DNA from: Bdellovibrionota bacterium
Lineage (GTDB): Bacteria > Bdellovibrionota_C > UBA2361
Direction: 5' to 3'
Assembly: GCA_044352465.1 (NCBI GenBank)
Contig: JBILDU010000088.1
Coordinates: 1-12,116 of the forward strand
Length of the DNA stretch: 12,116 nt
Part shown: piece by piece, positions 2,872 through 12,116 of the stretch
Position numbering within the stretch: position 1 is the stretch's first letter
How the letters are laid out: each line of letters starts with the position of its first letter
The notes under the pieces: model-generated
The model's database searches: none
What the model was told of the DNA's origin: nothing
What the model saw: the letters and a program-made list of their open reading frames with translations, nothing else
Program-made: the position numbers and the translations under genes

Positions 2872-4794
2872 ATGTCACGTCGTGTTGCGATAGGGGTTAC
2901 AGTCAGCGTCGGTACGCTCGCGATTCTTCCGCTGCTCAACATTACCTGCGGTAATCCCTTTCCGTGGCTCAACGGGAACGTCGTTGCCGGGATTAACCTT
3001 CTCGGCTGGAGTATCGTCCTTACTTTTCTGTTCGGTCGGGCCGCGCTGATGACATCCTTAAAGGGAGTAGCGCAGAGCGCCGGCCTCGACACCCGTCGCC
3101 GCTCGTTTGACCAACTTCTCGAAGCGGTTATTCGTGAGGTCTCACGGAAGAATAGTTCGCTTTCGATTAATCTCATCGAGCGGCGCATCGCCTCCAAAGA
3201 AGAGCTTTCTCGTACACTCGAGCGGATCGTTGCGCTCGCTTATAAACTCCTCGATGCCGAATCGGCGGAGCTGGCCCTCTTCGACAAGGATTCTGGTCTC
3301 TACCACTCATCGTTCGTACTGGGGCGCCCCTTTCGTGTCAGTGCCCAAGCGATGCTCGCGGGTGAGTCGGATCGCGAGCCGATCGATCCCGGCACCCTCG
3401 TCTATCCGATCGCCTTTGCGGGCACTGTGCTCGGCGGGCTCCGTGTCGGGTTAAAACGGGGCAACCTCCCCACTCTCGGAGATCGTGAGATTATGCGACT
3501 CCTCTCCCTCCAAAGTAGCCTCGCGATTATCAATGCCCAGTACTCCGAGGAGCTTATTCGGATGAAGCAGTACTCGGAGGAGTCGGTGAAGGCGAAGACC
3601 GGGTTCCTCGCAAATCTGAGCCACGAGCTTCGTGGGCCCCTGGGGATCATGCTCAATGCGGTCGAGCTCGTTTTGGAGGGGCTCTGTGGCCCTGTCAGCG
3701 CTGACCAGCTTGAGACTCTCGGCATGGTACGAGAGAACGGCGAGCACCTTCTTGAACTGATTAACGACGTTCTCGACTACGCGAAGATAGAGTCAGGTCG
3801 GTTAAAACCGCAGCCTGTGTCGATTCACGCCAACGAGATCCTTGAAGACCTGACCAACGTTGTGCGGGCTCAAGCGGAGACGAAAAAGCATAAGATCCTC
3901 GTGCGTCCCAATGAGGAGGCACTTGCGTTTTTATGCGACCGCCGGCACGCCCGGCAGATGTTGATAAACATGCTCACGAACGCGATCAAGTATACCCCGG
4001 ACGGCGGCACTATCGAGGTGTGGGCTGAGCGGGCCCCCGGAGGAAAGATTAAGCTCAGCGTCAAAGACTCAGGGGTCGGCATCGAGCAATCGAATCGCCA
4101 TAAGGTCTTCGCTGCCTTCGAGCGGATTGAGAACGCCTATTCGATGAATCAGGTTGGCACCGGCCTTGGCATGCCATTGACCCGCAGGCTCGCGGAGGTT
4201 AACGGCGGTCTCATCGACTTTCATTCGGTCCCCGGAAAAGGAAGTCACTTTTGGCTCGTTTTTCCGACGACTGAATTCGTCTCGAAGGCCTTGGAGAGCG
4301 ACGTTGAGTCGGCCGAGGAGCGACCGGGGCGGGGAGAAGCGGTGCTTCTTCTGGCGCGTGATGACGGTGAGCGAACGCTCCTTTCACGTCATCTGACCCA
4401 CGCCGGCTTTATCGTTCGGGCGGTCGATTCGACGGTTGATGCAGTTGACTTGCTGCGACTCCACGGCGCGGCCCTCGCTCTTATCGATAACGATTTCCTC
4501 GATAGATCCTCCGAGGATGTGCTGGGCCTCCTGCGCGGCGCGCCGGGCGGGGAGGTACTTCCGACGATACTCGTCAGCAGTCGAGCGTTTGTGTTCGATG
4601 TTGAGAGGTATCTTCGTGCCGGAGTCGATCGGTGTCTTTCAAAGCCCCTTGATATGAAGGGCCTTGGACGGACGTGTCGTGAAGCGATCGATACGAAGCT
4701 TTCGTTTTCCAAGACGGATAACGGGCGAGGGAACAGCGCGCCGACGGGGCGGGTTCTGAGCCGGCGTAGCTCCGGCGACGACGTATTTCATTAG
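2872..4794 (+). CDS. Hybrid sensor histidine kinase (2 TM, GAF-like, HisKA, HATPase, atypical REC)
   Basis: Two N-terminal hydrophobic segments and a GAF-like region (LAYKLLDAESAELALFD...LVYPIAFAGTVLGGLRV). H-box FLANLSHELRGPL, N-box NMLTNAIKYT, G1 DSGVGI, F-box VFAAF, G2 GTGLGM. C-terminal receiver with ALID, ILVSS and SKP. Confidence 0.92.
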   Translation: MSRRVAIGVTVSVGTLAILPLLNITCGNPFPWLNGNVVAGINLLGWSIVLTFLFGRAALMTSLKGVAQSAGLDTRRRSFDQLLEAVIREVSRKNSSLSINLIERRIASKEELSRTLERIVALAYKLLDAESAELALFDKDSGLYHSSFVLGRPFRVSAQAMLAGESDREPIDPGTLVYPIAFAGTVLGGLRVGLKRGNLPTLGDREIMRLLSLQSSLAIINAQYSEELIRMKQYSEESVKAKTGFLANLSHELRGPLGIMLNAVELVLEGLCGPVSADQLETLGMVRENGEHLLELINDVLDYAKIESGRLKPQPVSIHANEILEDLTNVVRAQAETKKHKILVRPNEEALAFLCDRRHARQMLINMLTNAIKYTPDGGTIEVWAERAPGGKIKLSVKDSGVGIEQSNRHKVFAAFERIENAYSMNQVGTGLGMPLTRRLAEVNGGLIDFHSVPGKGSHFWLVFPTTEFVSKALESDVESAEERPGRGEAVLLLARDDGERTLLSRHLTHAGFIVRAVDSTVDAVDLLRLHGAALALIDNDFLDRSSEDVLGLLRGAPGGEVLPTILVSSRAFVFDVERYLRAGVDRCLSKPLDMKGLGRTCREAIDTKLSFSKTDNGRGNSAPTGRVLSRRSSGDDVFH

Positions 4795-5886: not shown

Positions 5887-5962
5887 CGAAGCCTGGTAGC
5901 CTACTGCGGTGAATATCACGGGGGAGGACCGCCTCCTGCCGCTGTTTTTGTCACGGGCTGTT

Positions 5963-6637
5963 ATGTCGGTAACGGTAGGCTCACCTGAAGCGCAGCGAGC
6001 GCTTCAGCTCCAGCACAAAATTCGTCTGAGTGATGATCCCACCGCGCCGCTCGTGTACCTCGTCCACGGGCGGGCGGGTAATCACGATGTCATGTGGGCA
6101 TTCCGTCGCTGTATCCCCGAAGCCTGCTCGATCATCGCGCCCCAGGCGCCGCTGCCCGATAACGCGGGCGGATTCAGTTGGTGGGATATCGGCACGACGT
6201 CAGCTCGCGAGGGGAGCGAGCGTGCCGCTTCGATACTGCTTGAGTTCATGAACGCGGCCGAGAGCTTTTATCGGTTGAAGCCGCGCACCCGTTTGGCGTG
6301 TGGATTCTCTCAAGGTGCGGGGCTTTTATCGGCGGTGATACAGCGCGAAGCGTGTTTCGCTGGAGTCGGTCTTTTGGCCGGATTCGTCGTTGAAACCGCT
6401 CCGTCAAACCCGCTCCCTCGCGGACCAGGGGGACAGCCGACCGCGGTTTTTATGGCGCACGGCACGGACGATGAAATCGTGCCCGTTGAAAAAGCTCGAG
6501 CGGGGAGGGATCACCTTCTCTCGTATGGCTTTCCGGTCGAATATGTCGAAGACCCGGTCGGGCACAAGGTCGGCACCGGCGCGATGAAAGCGCTTACCCG
6601 TTGGTTTAGTTCGTTCGAGCTCGGCATCGCGCCATAG
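5963..6637 (+). CDS. Alpha/beta hydrolase, phospholipase/carboxylesterase type
   Basis: LVHGRAG oxyanion motif, APQAP...GFSWWD, nucleophile elbow GFSQG, acid in HGTDDEIVP, His in VGHKV. The start is uncertain (ATG 5963 versus GTG 5909). Confidence 0.9.
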   Translation: MSVTVGSPEAQRALQLQHKIRLSDDPTAPLVYLVHGRAGNHDVMWAFRRCIPEACSIIAPQAPLPDNAGGFSWWDIGTTSAREGSERAASILLEFMNAAESFYRLKPRTRLACGFSQGAGLLSAVIQREACFAGVGLLAGFVVETAPSNPLPRGPGGQPTAVFMAHGTDDEIVPVEKARAGRDHLLSYGFPVEYVEDPVGHKVGTGAMKALTRWFSSFELGIAP

Positions 6638-6649
6638 CTCCGCATCACC

Positions 6650-7189
6650 CTATTGACCGTCGCGGACCGGGGCATTGACGACGAGGCGCGCAGCGCCGTG
6701 CTCGCCATCGACCCGCACGGGTTGAAAGACCCGGACACTCCGAATCTTGCACACCGATTTTTTTGACTCCTCGCAGTAGTACACCACCGCTTCAATCACG
6801 ATATCTGCTTCGGTAGCTACCGGGGTGGTTTCGCCCCAATGAAGGGTGAGTGCCAGCGTGCTGGTATCGAGCGGTCCCTCGGCGATGAGCGCATCGCCCA
6901 CAAGTGGCGAACGGATCGCAACTCGTCCGGGAGCTTCAACGTTGATGGCATGATTGCCGGGGAGATCGAACTTCAGGTCCACTCCGAGCTCCCGCAGGGT
7001 GCGCACCTTCGCTGCAGGGTTCACGATCTCGGTGAGGTTGGGTAGGAAGTTGCCTGCTTTGGGCTGGTTTGGAGGTGAGTGTTCGGTCGGGGATTGAGTG
7101 GTTGCTCCGCCAGCCAAAACCGGACTCACTCCACCCAGGAGGAGACACCCCACCGCAAGGCCAACTCGAAAAGGGGTTGAAAAAGTCAC
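6650..7189 (-). CDS. Secreted protein (179 aa) with a DsbD-N-like / NHLRC2-SOQ1 C-terminal-like beta-sandwich and a Cys-x7-Cys pair
   Basis: SD GGAGG 5 nt before GTG 7189. Signal-peptide-like MTFSTPFRVGLAVGCLLLGGVSPVLA. Motifs LKFDLPGNHAINVEAP and VYYCEESKKSVCKIRSVRVFQPVRV. Confidence 0.75.
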   Translation of the reverse strand: MTFSTPFRVGLAVGCLLLGGVSPVLAGGATTQSPTEHSPPNQPKAGNFLPNLTEIVNPAAKVRTLRELGVDLKFDLPGNHAINVEAPGRVAIRSPLVGDALIAEGPLDTSTLALTLHWGETTPVATEADIVIEAVVYYCEESKKSVCKIRSVRVFQPVRVDGEHGAARLVVNAPVRDGQ

Positions 7190-7224
7190 GCAGTCCTCCA
7201 AAAAAGCTGTAAAAACAACCACCT

Positions 7225-7283: not shown

Positions 7284-7310
7284 TTAACCGAATCGGGCTT
7301 TTACCGATAT
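7284..7310 (+). promoter_or_regulatory. sigma28 (FliA)-type promoter for the flagellin-like gene
   Basis: TTAA (7284-7287)-N15-ACCGATAT (7303-7310), about 98 nt upstream of the ATG at 7409. Consistent with flagellins usually being sigma28-driven. Confidence 0.6.
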
Positions 7311-7318
7311 ACGGTAAG

Positions 7319-7368
7319 GGGGACGCTTCCCCAGTACGGTCCCGTTCGGTCTCCGCCGAACGGAACCG
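7319..7368 (+). other. Two tandem hairpins in the predicted 5' UTR of the flagellin-like gene
   Basis: GGGGA-CGCT-TCCCC (7319-7332) and CGGT-C-CCGTTCGGT-CTCC-GCCGAACGG-A-ACCG (7337-7368). Confidence 0.55.
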
Positions 7369-7408: not shown

Positions 7409-9418
7409 ATGTCGAAGGTCTCTCTAAATGGCATCGTGACCGAGAAGTTCATCACTCGGCTCGCGGCTGCAGGCAAGCAGGGCTCGAGCGCCTCGAGTAA
7501 TCCCCTGAAAGGAAGTTCCTCGGTGAGCCTCTCTGGTTCGCTCCGTCTGGGGGCGCAAACCTACGCGACCGCGGTCGGCGCTCTCAATAACACCCTTTCG
7601 GTGGTGAATATCGCGAAGGATACCCTTGGAAAGCTTGGCGACATCACCGACAAGATGATCGCGGTTACCGAGAAGGCGGCGCGACGCCCGATCGGAGCGC
7701 AGGGGCGGCGCGCTCTCGATATTCAATTCCGCGAACTCGCCGATGATTTTAAAAAGATCCTCGAAAAATCAAAGATCGGTGACAATAGTTTTTTGACCAC
7801 TGATGGGCTTACCGAGATATTTTTGGCGGTTGGTCTCGACAAGGAGAGTTCGAAGAGTATCGCTGATGTCTTTGCGCAGTTTGTCACCCCCGAGGAAGAC
7901 ACCACGTTGGCGAGCGAAAAAGTCGAGGGGAAGAAGCCGCTCGTTATTCCCGCCGCGGCATTCACCGTGCCCTCGCGTAGCGGACTGGTTCAGCTTGAAA
8001 CGTTAACCGATGCACCGCTGACCTCGGTCGTGGCCGGAATCTCGCCGACCACGAGCGTCTTTCAGGCGTCTGACGATATCCTGAATGAGAATCCGGGTGT
8101 CGAGGCGGTCTTCGTGCGGGATTCCGCCGGGGGCTTTCAAAGCCAGGGGGCTGGAAACCTTCTCGGAGTCGGGGCTACCCTCAGAGCGGTCAACGAGGTG
8201 ACCGGTTATTCAATTATTGAGTCGAGTTTTGATCCGTTAGGTGAGAATCCAGCCGGAGAGGCGCAGCTTTTTCTCCTGAGTGAGAAGGGCGCTCTCGTTG
8301 GTCAGCTCACCAATTTTAGCGGGGCAACAATCGAGTCGGTCGATATGACCTCCTCCGACGAAATGTTTGCGGTGAGTTATGTGAAAAGTGGTCAGTCCTA
8401 CGTTGATACGATCGAGATCACGAAAGGAGCTGCAGTCACCACCGCATTGATAACCAACATCGAGCGGACTAACGATTCGGTTACAAAAGTTAAGATAGAC
8501 AACAACGGAGACTACGTCGCTTTTCAGGTTGAAAAGCCCGGTCCTTTTAAAAACATCGAGCTTTATGACGTAGCTAACCGTACCTACGATAACGTCCTCC
8601 GTAACGACTCCCGTTCAAGAGATTCGCTCGACTACGGCTTCGTGGCTGACGGTGGCCAGATCGTCTACGGAATGACCGTCACCGATGGGTCGGCTGAGCG
8701 GAATTTGGTGTTGTACCAGAGCTCCGGAGGGATCAACAATACTCTTCGCTCCGCCGTTTCCTACGATGCGTTTGCGACCCTTCAATCGGGTAATTTCGGG
8801 ACAGGGGGAAGCTTTTCACTCGTTGAGAACGCTGGAGGGGTGAGGACCGTAAAGTTATACGATGCGGATGACGCCACGGAGAACTACGCCTTGGTGATCG
8901 GCAACGACGTCGTCTCGACGATGAGTTTGGCGGCGAACGCGAGCGACTCAAGCCGCATCGACATCGGGCTCGTCGGTTCGCTTCCTGATATCTCAGGGGA
9001 CTCCGATCTTGAATTTTACCGTATTCGCTACGATCCGGATGCTCGTCAGAACCGGCGTATCTCGAGCGGCTCGGTGCAATACTCTGAGATACTCGATCCT
9101 ACTCGAGGTATCACCTCGCGACCGGCAGCGTACCGGCTTTTAAACGATCTTAAGGCGCTCCGGGAGCAGATCACCTCGAACGTCGACGCGCTCCAAAACG
9201 CCTTCGATGTTGTGAATGACAATATCGCTCTCGTTCGCGCCACCGGACTCGCGCTCCTCGATATTGGGAACCAGCTCACCAACGAGACCGATGCCGCGGC
9301 GGTGGCCGAGTCCCTGCGTCGGCGTATTCGAGAGAGCGCTCAAGAGGCGCTCGCTCAAGCTGAAAATCTCGACCCGATCGCTGTTGCCACGTTGACCTAC
9401 ACCTCGAACGGAAATTAG
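7409..9418 (+). CDS. Divergent flagellin-family protein (669 aa) with a central putative beta-propeller domain
   Basis: Residues ~40-129 (SLSGSLRLGAQTYATAVGALNNTLSVVNIAKDTLGKLGDITDKMIAVTEKAA...GRRALDIQFRELADDFKKILEKSKIGDNSFL) follow the flagellin N-terminal helical pattern. Residues ~567-662 (GITSRPAAYRLLNDLKALREQI...ESAQEALAQAENLDPIAVATL) follow the C-terminal pattern (QAGTAMLAQANQ.PQ.VL.LL). The middle is beta-rich and repetitive. Confidence 0.8.
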   Translation: MSKVSLNGIVTEKFITRLAAAGKQGSSASSNPLKGSSSVSLSGSLRLGAQTYATAVGALNNTLSVVNIAKDTLGKLGDITDKMIAVTEKAARRPIGAQGRRALDIQFRELADDFKKILEKSKIGDNSFLTTDGLTEIFLAVGLDKESSKSIADVFAQFVTPEEDTTLASEKVEGKKPLVIPAAAFTVPSRSGLVQLETLTDAPLTSVVAGISPTTSVFQASDDILNENPGVEAVFVRDSAGGFQSQGAGNLLGVGATLRAVNEVTGYSIIESSFDPLGENPAGEAQLFLLSEKGALVGQLTNFSGATIESVDMTSSDEMFAVSYVKSGQSYVDTIEITKGAAVTTALITNIERTNDSVTKVKIDNNGDYVAFQVEKPGPFKNIELYDVANRTYDNVLRNDSRSRDSLDYGFVADGGQIVYGMTVTDGSAERNLVLYQSSGGINNTLRSAVSYDAFATLQSGNFGTGGSFSLVENAGGVRTVKLYDADDATENYALVIGNDVVSTMSLAANASDSSRIDIGLVGSLPDISGDSDLEFYRIRYDPDARQNRRISSGSVQYSEILDPTRGITSRPAAYRLLNDLKALREQITSNVDALQNAFDVVNDNIALVRATGLALLDIGNQLTNETDAAAVAESLRRRIRESAQEALAQAENLDPIAVATLTYTSNGN

Positions 9419-9560: not shown

Positions 9561-9602
9561 TAAGTAATCCTAGCGTGTTAAGCCTTTTTGGGTGACGATT
9601 TT

Positions 9603-12116
9603 ATGACCTTGCCCCCACATATCCAAGCGGTCTTCGGTTCGAATGCGGGTTATATCGAGGAGCTTCTCGATCTTTACCGAACCGATCCAACCCTGGTGGG
9701 TGAATCGTGGGCATCTTTTTTTCGAAGTGAGCTTGGCGAAGCCCCGAGCGCTGTCGTCACGACAACGAAATTGAATGGCAACGGCTATCACGCCCCGACG
9801 CCGGCCGGTGAAGCGCCCCGAGCTCCCTCAGTCTCGAGCGCCCTGCAGGCGCGGGTAACCGCGATTATTCATGCATTTCGTGAGCGGGGCCACTTCCACG
9901 CCGCCGTGAATCCGCTCCGCAGCGGCGCGGCCCTTCCGGTGCAAGCGGATCTTACTCCCGAGGCGCTCACGTTCTCTCCGGCTGAACTGGCCGCCTCGGT
10001 CGATGTCGGTGGTTTTGCTGGCCGCTCCCAGATGACGGTTGCGGAGCTTCTTGCGTCGCTCCGCGGGGCTTATTGCTCTAGCGTAGGTTTTGAGGTGTCG
10101 CACCTCGTGAACCAAGAAGCGCGGCGCTGGCTTACCGAGCGGATCGAGCGAGGAATCGATCGCGCGACGCTCTCCCCGCAAGCCAAGCGGCATCTCTTCC
10201 ATAAGCTCGTTGATGCTGAGGGTTTTGAGGCTGAGTTACACAAAAAATACGTTGGAGTGAAACGGTTCTCCCTCCAAGGCGGGGATACGCTTATCCCCGC
10301 GCTCGATACGTTGCTCGATGAAGCTGCCCGGCGGGGAACCAAGGAAGGTGTCATCGGAATGAGCCACCGTGGGCGCCTCAACGTGCTGGCCAATATCGTG
10401 GGGAAACCGCTCGCGGATATCTTTAACGAGTTCGAAGACTCTAATCTTGTGACCGCGCTTGGGGCGGGGGACGTGAAGTATCATTTGGGCTACAGCTCGA
10501 CCTATGCGACCGGTAGTGACGGTGAAGTTGGGGGAGCGATTCGCATCTCGCTGGCGCCGAATCCGTCACATCTTGAGTTTGTGAACCCGGTGATTCAGGG
10601 GATCGTTCGCGCTAAGCAGGACAAGGAGCACGGCGGAGATCGCGCCGCGGTGGTTCCGATCTTGATTCACGGCGATGCAGCGTTCGCGGGCCAAGGGGTG
10701 GTTTTTGAGACGATTAACTACGCCGGGCTTCCGAGCTACACCACGGGGGGCACGGTCCACATCATCGTTAACAACCAGGTTGGATTCACCACGAACCCAG
10801 AGGAGTCGCGCTCGACCCCGTACTGCACCGACCTCGCCCGCGGTGTTCACATCCCGGTGTTTCATGTGAACGGGGAGGATCCCGAGGCGGCCTTGTGGGT
10901 GATGCGCCTCGCCGTCGAGTATCGGCAACGCTTCCTTGGCGATGTGATTATCGACCTTATCGGATTTCGAAAATACGGGCACAACGAGGGCGATGACCCC
11001 AGCTTTACTCAGCCGGTGATGTATAACGAGATTCAGTCGAAGCCCCCGACGGCGCGGCTCTACGGTGCGCACCTCGCTCAAGAGGGGCTCCTCTCAGAGA
11101 GCGATATCAAGGGCGCTTTCGATTCTTTTGGGCAGCGCTTTCAAGCGGCGCATGCAGGCAAGAAGGTGATTCCGACCGGCGAGGCGTGTGCGATGCACGG
11201 AATGTTGCGGGTCCCGTCACCTGCGACCGGTGTGGCGCTCGAAACGTTACGGAAGATCGCCGCCCCTCTCACGACGTACCCCGAGGGTTTTAAGCCCCAT
11301 CCGAAAGTTGAAAAGATTCTGGAGAAGCGGGTTGAATCGCTCGACGCGGGGAGCGGCATCGATTGGGGCTTTGCTGAGGGGCTCGCCATCGGTTCGCTTA
11401 TCCTCGAGGGCCATCCCGTTCGCCTGACCGGGCAGGACTGTGGTCGGGGCACTTTCAGTCAGCGTCACCTGATGTTGAGCGATGTGAACGGCCGGGGACA
11501 CTATCTTCCTCTCGATACACTCGACACCCCACAGGGGGCTCGCTTTGAGGTCCATAACAGCTCTCTCTCGGAAGCTGCGGTTGTCGGTTACGAATTTGGT
11601 TACGGCAGCGTCGCCCGGGGCGATCTGGTGATGTGGGAGGCGCAGTTCGGCGATTTTGCGAACGGAGCGCAGGTGCATATCGATCAGTTCCTCGCAAGCT
11701 CAGAGGCGAAGTGGAATCAGCTCTCCGGTGTGGTGATGTTGTTGCCGCACGGGTTTGAGGGGCAGGGTCCGGAGCACTCGAGCGCGCGGCTTGAGCGGTA
11801 TCTCCAGCTCTGTGCTGAGGGAAACATGGTGGTTTGCTATCCGACCAAAGCATCACAGCACTTCCACCTCCTACGTCGACAGGGGCTTATCGATATCAAG
11901 CGTCCGCTTATCGTGATGACGCCGAAGAGTCTCCTCCGTCATCCGGGCGCGGCCTCGGGGGTTGATGAGCTGACGAGTGGTCAATTTGAGACTGTGCTCG
12001 TCGACCGAGTCGGTGCCGGTGCCGTGCGGCATGTCGTCTTTCTAACCGGAAAAGTTTTCTACGAGGTCAAAGCGGCGCTCGAGAAAGAGAAGATTGATGG
12101 CGTGGCGCTCGTTCGT
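9603..12116 (+). CDS. sucA: 2-oxoglutarate dehydrogenase E1 component, 3'-truncated by the window edge
   Basis: Absent from the ORF track because it has no stop in the window. Translates as MTLPPHIQAVFGSNAGYIEELLDLYRTDP..., FRERGH, KYVGVKRFSLQGGD, GMSHRGRLNVLA, GDVKYHLG, NPSHLE, HGDAAFAGQGVVFET (ThDP motif), GHNEGDDP, WEAQFGDFANGAQ, LPHGFEGQGPEHSSARLERYLQL, all in one frame. Confidence 0.97.
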   Translation, partial: MTLPPHIQAVFGSNAGYIEELLDLYRTDPTLVGESWASFFRSELGEAPSAVVTTTKLNGNGYHAPTPAGEAPRAPSVSSALQARVTAIIHAFRERGHFHAAVNPLRSGAALPVQADLTPEALTFSPAELAASVDVGGFAGRSQMTVAELLASLRGAYCSSVGFEVSHLVNQEARRWLTERIERGIDRATLSPQAKRHLFHKLVDAEGFEAELHKKYVGVKRFSLQGGDTLIPALDTLLDEAARRGTKEGVIGMSHRGRLNVLANIVGKPLADIFNEFEDSNLVTALGAGDVKYHLGYSSTYATGSDGEVGGAIRISLAPNPSHLEFVNPVIQGIVRAKQDKEHGGDRAAVVPILIHGDAAFAGQGVVFETINYAGLPSYTTGGTVHIIVNNQVGFTTNPEESRSTPYCTDLARGVHIPVFHVNGEDPEAALWVMRLAVEYRQRFLGDVIIDLIGFRKYGHNEGDDPSFTQPVMYNEIQSKPPTARLYGAHLAQEGLLSESDIKGAFDSFGQRFQAAHAGKKVIPTGEACAMHGMLRVPSPATGVALETLRKIAAPLTTYPEGFKPHPKVEKILEKRVESLDAGSGIDWGFAEGLAIGSLILEGHPVRLTGQDCGRGTFSQRHLMLSDVNGRGHYLPLDTLDTPQGARFEVHNSSLSEAAVVGYEFGYGSVARGDLVMWEAQFGDFANGAQVHIDQFLASSEAKWNQLSGVVMLLPHGFEGQGPEHSSARLERYLQLCAEGNMVVCYPTKASQHFHLLRRQGLIDIKRPLIVMTPKSLLRHPGAASGVDELTSGQFETVLVDRVGAGAVRHVVFLTGKVFYEVKAALEKEKIDGVALVR

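Follow-up and report, generated by a model that had tools for sequence, protein, structure and literature searches.

A flagellin-superfamily protein with an inserted seven-bladed propeller in a Bdellovibrionota bacterium, and the diverged family to which it appears to belong

We analysed a window of 12,116 nt (contig JBILDU010000088.1 of assembly GCA_044352465.1, an uncultured Bdellovibrionota bacterium), in which an intact open reading frame (ORF) at positions 7409..9418 of the forward strand encodes P0001, a protein of 669 aa with an ATG start. P0001 combines flagellin-like ends with a predicted seven-bladed beta-propeller inserted between them and, judged by profile comparisons, belongs to a distinct, unnamed and deeply diverged clade of the flagellin superfamily. 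P0001 is most likely a late substrate of flagellar type III export that displays its propeller outside the cell. That it serves there as a minor or specialised structural subunit of the flagellum is the reading we favour, at a little less than an even chance.

Flagellin-like ends and a propeller insert

The AlphaFold2 (AF2) model of full-length P0001 was computed from an 80-row alignment and reached a mean predicted local distance difference test (pLDDT) value of 93.1 and a predicted template modelling (pTM) score of 0.75. It is all-beta over aa 194-541, where ~28 strands form seven groups of four. The blades lie approximately at aa 205-245, 255-300, 305-355, 356-405, 407-449, 450-499 and 500-543, and the strand at 194-198 probably closes blade 7. 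An earlier model from 7 sequences was already confident over aa 255-541, and its Foldseek matches were seven-bladed propellers. When the model was searched against 48,161 representative chains with VIA-align, aa 191-545 aligned with the S9 carboxypeptidase 8wt1_A (Z 23.0, rmsd 3.4, 301 aligned residues), Sec12 (4h5i_A, Z 22.6), oligogalacturonate lyase (3c5m_A, Z 21.7) and integrin alpha-V (4um8_A, Z 21.5), with many WD40 domains next (Z 19-21); the matches to seven-bladed propellers spanned Z 19-23 over aa ~192-543. Foldseek results were consistent with this. The insert (7979..9043, forward strand; aa 191-545), which we call type A, is thus predicted to be a closed seven-bladed ring of four-stranded blades. 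An original prediction, made from the letters of the window and a list of its ORFs, had proposed a propeller of about seven blades and suggested structure prediction with Foldseek as a check; all seven of its quoted blade strings are present in the translation of 7409..9418 and coincide with the seven modelled blades. Its insert size of ~430 aa was too large. The insert measures ~355 aa, and aa 131-190 are part of a family core that is also found in relatives without any insert.

The fold class of the insert is clear and its subtype is not, because the VIA-align scores were nearly tied and gave no separation between TolB, S9-peptidase, WD40 and integrin propellers. A comparison of profile A5 with the Protein Data Bank (PDB) listed TolB chains at E 7.5e-4 to 1.7e-3 with WD40 proteins alongside at 2.4e-4 to 5e-3, and TolB occurred among the Foldseek matches (E ~1e-7) without standing out. 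The earlier label "TolB/PD40-like" therefore survives as a weak lead (TolB at E ~1e-3), but WD40 proteins reach similar values and the Pfam scan matched no repeat family in the propeller. FG-GAP calcium-loop motifs (D-x-[DN]-x-D-G) were counted 0 times in P0001, and Pfam FG-GAP gave no match either. Conservation within the insert is highest in blade 2 (aa ~266-312). Within its own genome, a hidden Markov model (HMM) of the insert found this gene alone (E 1.4e-89; next best 0.096), and a word-indexed search with the propeller alone returned just 4 close relatives and no propeller in another protein context.

Around the insert, the model places helices at aa 6-25, 41-91, 97-120, 571-622 and 629-666. 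This is the order D0-D1...D1-D0, and in a model of pLDDT 93 both order and lengths fit flagellin. The N-terminal part, on the forward strand as the whole gene, begins with a short helix at the D0 position (aa 1-25, 7409..7483; by DSSP of the model) and continues with a variable Ser/Gly-rich linker at the spoke position (aa 26-40, 7484..7528; pLDDT 64-69, gappy in alignments A1 and A3) and with the D1-like helices and a short beta-hairpin at 121-130 (aa 41-130, 7529..7798), which are in register with flagellins. It is followed by a family-specific conserved segment that ends at the insertion point (aa 131-190, 7799..7978; alignments A3 and A5, pLDDT 93-97). This segment has the pattern GLD..S.SIA..F..F.....D..LASE..KG..P..IP, with G142 invariant and L143, F155, F158 and L167 conserved at 90% or more; it aligns poorly to canonical flagellin in hhalign and is retained in insert-less relatives. 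Behind the propeller, the core HMM resumes at ~aa 547 within a linker (aa 546-570, 9044..9118) that contains an 'IFD/ILD...R' motif common to the short forms. The D1-like C-terminal helix (aa 571-622, 9119..9274) is seen in the model and aligns by hhalign to the C-terminal D1 of canonical flagellin. Last comes the D0-like C-terminal helix (629-666 within aa 623-669, 9275..9415), ending in 'LAQAENLDPIAVATLTY'; the C-terminus 'ALAQAENLDPIAVATLTY' is similar to '...LAQANQQPSLALSLIR' of the flagellins encoded in the same genome.

The flagellin likeness of these ends is weak for the lone sequence and solid at the profile level. Searched as a single sequence, P0001 found 0 matches in the PDB, shared 22-26% identity over ~100 aa with the filament flagellins of its own genome and matched NCBIfam LafA over aa 44-135 (E 5e-5). 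Profile A1 aligned in register with PDB flagellins (9atl_A, E 1.6e-4), and Flagellin_N was matched in 5 of 7 close homologues. Among the short, insert-less relatives, Flagellin_N was found in register at E<=0.01 in 28 of 35, in just 7 of them above the cut-off. The profile of the core alignment A3 (37 short-form sequences) retrieved 10pp_A as best PDB match (E 8.1e-8), and chains named flagellin or 'flagellin homolog' made up nearly all of the 40 rows; 7sqj_A and 7sn7_A matched its C-terminal part, and 8jmv_A spanned nearly the full length. Compared by hhalign with A4, an alignment of 4 canonical flagellins of this genome, A3 reached 97% probability and E 9.2e-11 over 231 columns (core 39-298 against flagellin 45-280 of 287), and E 3e-8 against one of these flagellins individually. 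Language-model neighbours were flagellin clusters (score 0.96). By these comparisons the ends of P0001 are homologous to flagellin D0/D1, over the D1 and the C-terminal D0 regions. By eye, the N-terminus is not hydrophobic, unlike a Sec signal peptide.

A diverged family with one insertion point

A word-indexed search found 7 relatives of P0001, and an exhaustive profile search found 1170 cluster representatives at E<=1e-3, of which 177 were at <=1e-30. The P0001 protein matched 55 of 61 genomes of relatives at E<=1e-5; canonical flagellins also score within this limit. With the A3 core profile, 108 of the 124 genomes searched in the phylum were matched at E<=1e-12. Within the same order (91 genomes by our own count), 73 had a best match at E<=2e-38 and 4 had fragments (1e-21 to 1e-33), whereas 7 gave only weak matches in the range of canonical flagellins (1e-13 to 1e-17) and 7 gave none; matches outside the order were weaker (1e-14 to 1e-34). 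In the genome studied here, the core HMM scored the P0001 gene at 4.4e-108 and the canonical flagellins at 4.6e-13 or worse. The family gene is single-copy in this genome and present in one or two copies across the order. The number of canonical flagellins varies and can be high; this genome has ~11 of them, several of 606-626 aa when called from the first start codon. Some genomes hold both a long and a short family copy (e.g., G010, G039 and G008). Taken together, these results place P0001 in a separate clade within the flagellin superfamily. The original prediction of a flagellin paralogue with a new insert was right about the superfamily, but the family is a diverged one of its own and its common alternative form has no insert.

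Family members carry the name 'hypothetical protein' in their sources and once, by automatic annotation, 'flagellin-like hook-associated protein FlgL'. An identity as FlgL was rejected. The P0001 gene is not among the TIGR02550 matches at E<=1, the genome has its canonical flgK-flgL pair on a different contig (C151), and the core profile compared with the genome's own FlgL gave E 0.084 and 0.7% probability. FlgL was also absent from the core-HMM matches at E<=1, and 14 short forms matched no FlgL model in NCBIfam.

All inserts of the family sit at one point, at core HMM position ~190-195. The core of ~290-370 aa corresponds to P0001 aa 1-190 plus ~547-669, and the insert-less form has ~310 aa. 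After removal of 19 fragments from 153 representatives, and of the duplicate database copy P0002, 134 complete representatives were tallied: 43 had no insert, 55 one type-A propeller, 13 two and 1 three, 15 had one FG-GAP insert and 5 two, 1 was mixed and 1 was unclassified (P0111, FG-GAP by Pfam). Members of ~640-690 aa with an insert that did not match the type-A profile had FG-GAP_3 repeats in 17 of 17 cases tested. The FG-GAP member P0066 is 32% identical over 494 aa (E 7e-60) to a 626-aa canonical FG-GAP flagellin of the P0001 genome, to which P0001 itself is merely 22% identical over 101 N-terminal residues; the FG-GAP cassette is thus shared between some family members and canonical flagellins of this genome. 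An hhalign comparison of type-A with FG-GAP members was dominated by their common termini and is uninformative on the kinship of the two propellers. The original prediction had proposed counting paralogues and looking for swapped inserts. Swapping was indeed seen, with type-A, FG-GAP or nothing at the same point, among the family members of relatives, whereas the count in this genome was one.

Changes of the insert seem to have recurred. A FastTree core tree of the 134 representatives required at least 20 changes between short and insert-bearing forms and at least 8 between type A and FG-GAP; these counts are inflated by tree error and had no shuffled-label control, so that they show just that changes recurred. 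Firmer than the tree is the synteny. A slot between an esterase gene and sucA is occupied by the 669-aa P0001 in this genome, by a form of 310 aa in G002, of the same taxonomic family, and by one of 680 aa in G016; part of the slot is kept in G043, with a 305-aa form before sucA, and in G050, with a 667-aa form after the esterase. Short and propeller-bearing forms occupy the same slot and are therefore positional orthologues.

Two observations from the relatives stand apart. Five giant ORFs of 3898, 4816, 4585, 2183 and 2179 aa contain a stretch that matches the core profile at E 1e-20 to 1e-26 (G014:C14:25858-26370, G073:C1:283151-283552, G075:C60:81387-81884, G031:C149:14556-14945 and G049:C221:14667-15098, respectively) and may encode giant flagellin-superfamily proteins. 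In G010, a 1673-aa FG-GAP repeat protein (FG-GAP E 2e-97; L046:2751-7772, reverse strand) is encoded directly upstream of, and divergent from, a propeller-bearing member.

Links to the flagellum and the possible role of P0001

The genome encodes a single FliS. Complex prediction of FliS with P0001 aa 560-669 scored 0.84 (best control 0.00), a mark attained by 116 of 157 solved complexes and by 2 of 215 mismatched pairs; the runs had at least 76% of contacts in common, a partner pLDDT of at least 72 and an interface at aa 621-663. The predicted complex shows that the C-terminus of P0001 resembles a FliS client, which is a likeness and not binding. The distribution of the family points in the same direction: 4 genomes of the same order that lack the family (taxonomic families f20 and f21) also lack any Flagellin_N match at E<=1e-3.

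Promoter sequences suggest a further link. A strict sigma-28 scan (TAAAGTTT-N10-12-GCCGATAA, CGAT fixed, up to 4 mismatches) found sites 52-78 nt upstream of the start in 5 of 11 family genes, e.g., TAAAGTTT-N11-GTCGATAA in L045 and TTTAGTTT-N11-GCCGATAC in L042; with a background of 29 matches in 343,310 nt, ~0.2 would be expected in 11 upstream regions. Upstream of the P0001 gene the strict scan found no site. A relaxed scan (consensus TAAA-N15-GCCGATAA) added the window's gene and L040 and brought the number of family genes with sigma-28-type sites to 7 of 11. The candidate in the window, TTAA-N15-ACCGATAT at 7284..7310 (forward strand), would give a 5' untranslated region (UTR) of ~100 nt. 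FliA is encoded in this genome (250 bits, cut-off 189.6). Relaxed sites also occur at -107 and -130 upstream of two of its large canonical flagellins; most canonical-flagellin upstream regions failed both scans and show, by eye, a TAAG/TAAAC...GCCGTTTA variant. Four large canonical flagellins (contigs C45, C99, C139 and C112) have TAAG/TAAAC-N16-GCCG(C)TTTA in common upstream, apparently a local form of the sigma-28 consensus. An inverted repeat, CCGTTCGG-N6-CCGAACGG, lies at 7342-7363 inside the putative UTR of the P0001 gene.

If P0001 is an exported flagellar protein, as seems most likely, its gene would be expressed together with the late flagellar genes that depend on sigma-28, FliS would bind the C-terminal D0 helix in the cytoplasm, and the unfolded chain would leave through the flagellar type III channel. 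Outside the cell the protein would fold and, through its D0/D1 core, become a minor or specialised subunit of the axial structure; its propeller would point outward as a rigid surface for binding or spacing. The insert-less orthologues would serve the same core function but display no module. This picture fits a family function seated in the D0/D1-like core, with an outer domain that, as in filament flagellins, can be dropped or exchanged.

Several observations weigh against this interpretation. The helix at the N-terminal D0 position has only ~20 residues, is shorter than in the flagellins of the same genome and lacks their canonical 'RLSSGxRIN..DDAAG' stretch; hhalign left the first ~38 core residues unaligned to flagellin, and such a short, motif-less helix could block polymerisation. 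The flagellin-like helical termini of the original prediction hold as homology at the profile level (hhalign E 9.2e-11, aligning both ends), but its HMMER check did not succeed on P0001 itself: Pfam Flagellin_N (PF00669) gave nothing at E<=1 and only 12.9 bits against a cut-off of 26.6 in the genome search, and Flagellin_C (PF00700) matched neither P0001 nor 6 close homologues, 35 short forms and 23 further members. The structure searches ranked no flagellins, as propeller matches fill every list, and leave the fold of the termini unconfirmed. FliS-flagellin complexes have already been solved, and the FliS prediction may be a memory of them. The co-absence with flagellin covers two taxonomic families only, and the genomes concerned still carry two FHIPEP paralogues. 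The window's own sigma-28 site is weak, given a chance rate of 0.049 per 220 nt for the relaxed scan in this genome, and 4 of 11 family genes have no site in either scan. No RNA run is listed among the sequencing runs that contain the P0001 stretch. Lastly, the gene is an orphan, as originally predicted: flagellar genes adjoin the family gene in 0 of 11 loci (the window and 10 loci of relatives).

As a separate observation on these export genes, G023, G024, G035 and G044, the genomes of f20 and f21, have two FHIPEP (FlhA/SctV-type) paralogues each and the flagellated G109 has three, which points to type III-like export gates of a non-flagellar kind in the lineage.

A somewhat less likely account is that P0001 is a non-structural protein like FlaC, whose flagellin-like ends serve as an export and chaperone signal without polymerising, so that it is released and its propeller serves as a factor that is soluble or binds surfaces (e.g., particles, prey or polysaccharide). 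The orphan gene outside the flagellar clusters, as in FlaC, the strong divergence from the filament flagellins and the shortened N-terminal helix, which fits a lost ability to polymerise, all speak for it, and the sigma-28 and FliS evidence fits it equally well. We nevertheless prefer the structural subunit because insert-less positional orthologues of ~310 aa are frequent (43 of 134) and their core is strongly conserved, which places the conserved function in the D0/D1-like core rather than in a cargo domain. Two further reasons are that the copy number stays at one or two, in contrast to the widely differing numbers of canonical flagellins, and that the FG-GAP cassette is held in common with surface-exposed flagellins. 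The role of FlaC in the TLR5 host response, as described in PMC4863622 and PMC5466977, also has no counterpart in a lake bacterium. A bolder version of the structural reading, which we consider unlikely, would make the family an unrecognised class of axial protein beside FlgK, FlgL, flagellin and FliD: single-copy, sigma-28-controlled and FliS-chaperoned, occupying a defined zone of the filament (e.g., near a junction or the cap), to which lineages have repeatedly added one to three propellers as a local collar or binding platform.

The predicted FliS interface, the single copy with its strongly conserved core and the position of the gene among housekeeping and signalling genes, by a hybrid histidine kinase, would also suit a cytoplasmic regulator or decoy that titrates FliS or another flagellin-binding factor and tunes flagellin export or translation without being exported. 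One to three large propellers, including the FG-GAP cassette of surface-exposed flagellins, are hard to explain in such a protein, and we regard it as improbable. It is more improbable still that P0001 is just a fast-evolving flagellin of the ordinary kind, serving as a major or alternative filament subunit. Flagellin homology covers both ends, propeller outer domains have already been catalogued in flagellins (PMC11532411), and this genome has ~11 canonical flagellins, several of them 606-626 aa long; against this stand the clear gap in core-HMM values (4.4e-108 vs <=4.6e-13), the clade-specific segment, the missing Flagellin_C match, the divergent N-terminus and the one or two copies conserved across the order, where canonical flagellins vary. 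Least probable of all appears a coiled-coil scaffold of flagellin descent serving some other structure of the surface or cell envelope. It would agree with the missing flagellar neighbours and the conserved linkage to the esterase gene and sucA, and it is contradicted by the sigma-28-type promoters, the flagellin-type C-terminal helix with its predicted FliS interface, the apparent lack of a Sec signal (by eye) and the absence of the family from flagellin-less genomes.

Related systems and surroundings of the gene

A propeller on a flagellin-type core is not new. Fields et al. (2024; Nat Commun 15:9500, PMC11532411) sorted into clusters the outer domains of UniProt proteins that carry the annotation 'flagellin', and that survey lists a 'WD40-repeats' cluster (#55). 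Such flagellins and the FG-GAP flagellins of the genome studied here share with P0001 a D0/D1-type core with a seven-bladed propeller as outer domain. The core of P0001 differs from theirs in forming a separate clade below the Pfam cut-offs, with its own 60-aa segment and a short, motif-less N-terminal helix, and its propeller differs from the FG-GAP flagellins of its own genome in lacking FG-GAP motifs and any Pfam repeat match, although some other family members share that cassette. The family was probably outside the survey, because its members are named 'hypothetical protein' or, once, FlgL. The same source lists a 'flagella_HEXXH' cluster (#15) of enzymatic outer domains. Flagellinolysins likewise have a globular module as the outer domain on a core of the flagellin type; theirs is enzymatic, whereas P0001 has a propeller in which no catalytic motif is recognised.

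FlaC of Campylobacter jejuni and other Campylobacterales is, according to PMC4863622 and PMC5466977, a divergent flagellin-like protein that is encoded apart from the filament flagellins, as P0001 is, and that modulates host responses via TLR5. By analogy, P0001 might be secreted via the flagellum and be dispensable for motility. The same accounts have FlaC acting on vertebrate hosts, whereas the organism of P0001 occurs in lake water and its family has modular propellers. FlgL (hook-associated protein 3, TIGR02550) resembles the family as a single-copy flagellin-superfamily paralogue of ~300 aa and has a fixed structural role; the family core is far closer to flagellin (E 3e-8) than to the genome's own FlgL (E 0.084), whose gene lies elsewhere in the flgK-flgL pair. 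FlaC is not known to have an outer domain.

Three things appear new: the family as such, a fixed insertion site that takes 0-3 propellers drawn from two kinds, and a propeller type without a Pfam model. In the literature on flagellin-like proteins of Bdellovibrionota and on beta-propeller outer domains of flagellins, we found no paper on this family. P0001 thus points to a sister family missed by annotation that an order of uncultured freshwater bacteria has conserved, with one or a few copies per genome, and that seems to act as a plug-in scaffold. If its members are part of the flagellum, they would be a new part of a machine whose inventory is thought to be complete and offer a natural series, from no insert to one, two and three propellers, for studying outer-domain function. 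If they are secreted, they would represent an environmental counterpart of FlaC and the use of the flagellum as a display or secretion device outside pathogens.

The database copy of the protein, P0002, has 631 aa and starts 38 residues downstream of the P0001 ATG. We prefer the ATG at 7409 because residues 1-38 are conserved among homologues; a clear Shine-Dalgarno sequence is not present upstream of it. The neighbours in the window are der, guaA, a hybrid histidine kinase/response regulator gene, a 120-aa ORF, an Abhydrolase_2 esterase gene, a 190-aa ORF and sucA. As the original prediction stated, the window holds no further flagellar gene (Pfam and NCBIfam scan of its proteins). The esterase gene (5909..6637, forward strand; Pfam E 8.1e-8) marks the upstream side of the family gene's slot and is also present in L049, L047 and L048. 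The downstream side is marked by sucA, encoding 2-oxoglutarate dehydrogenase E1 (9588..12116, forward strand, extending past the window; NF006914, 1024 bits), which also lies 3' of the family gene in L040, L049 and L047. The P0001 stretch is present in sequencing runs labelled as lake-water, freshwater or plain metagenome, and five of these runs may be its source.

The 190-aa ORF (6650-7222, reverse strand) is divergent from the P0001 gene and has no Pfam or NCBIfam match. It had no counterpart in the other 28 relatives searched; in G001, of the same genus, its homologue (64% identity) adjoins the orthologue of P0001, and in G002 (36%) it lies elsewhere. The order of the hybrid histidine kinase gene (2872-4794), the esterase gene (5909-6637) and sucA (9588-12116) around the family gene is kept in several taxonomic families of the same order (L047, L048 and L049).

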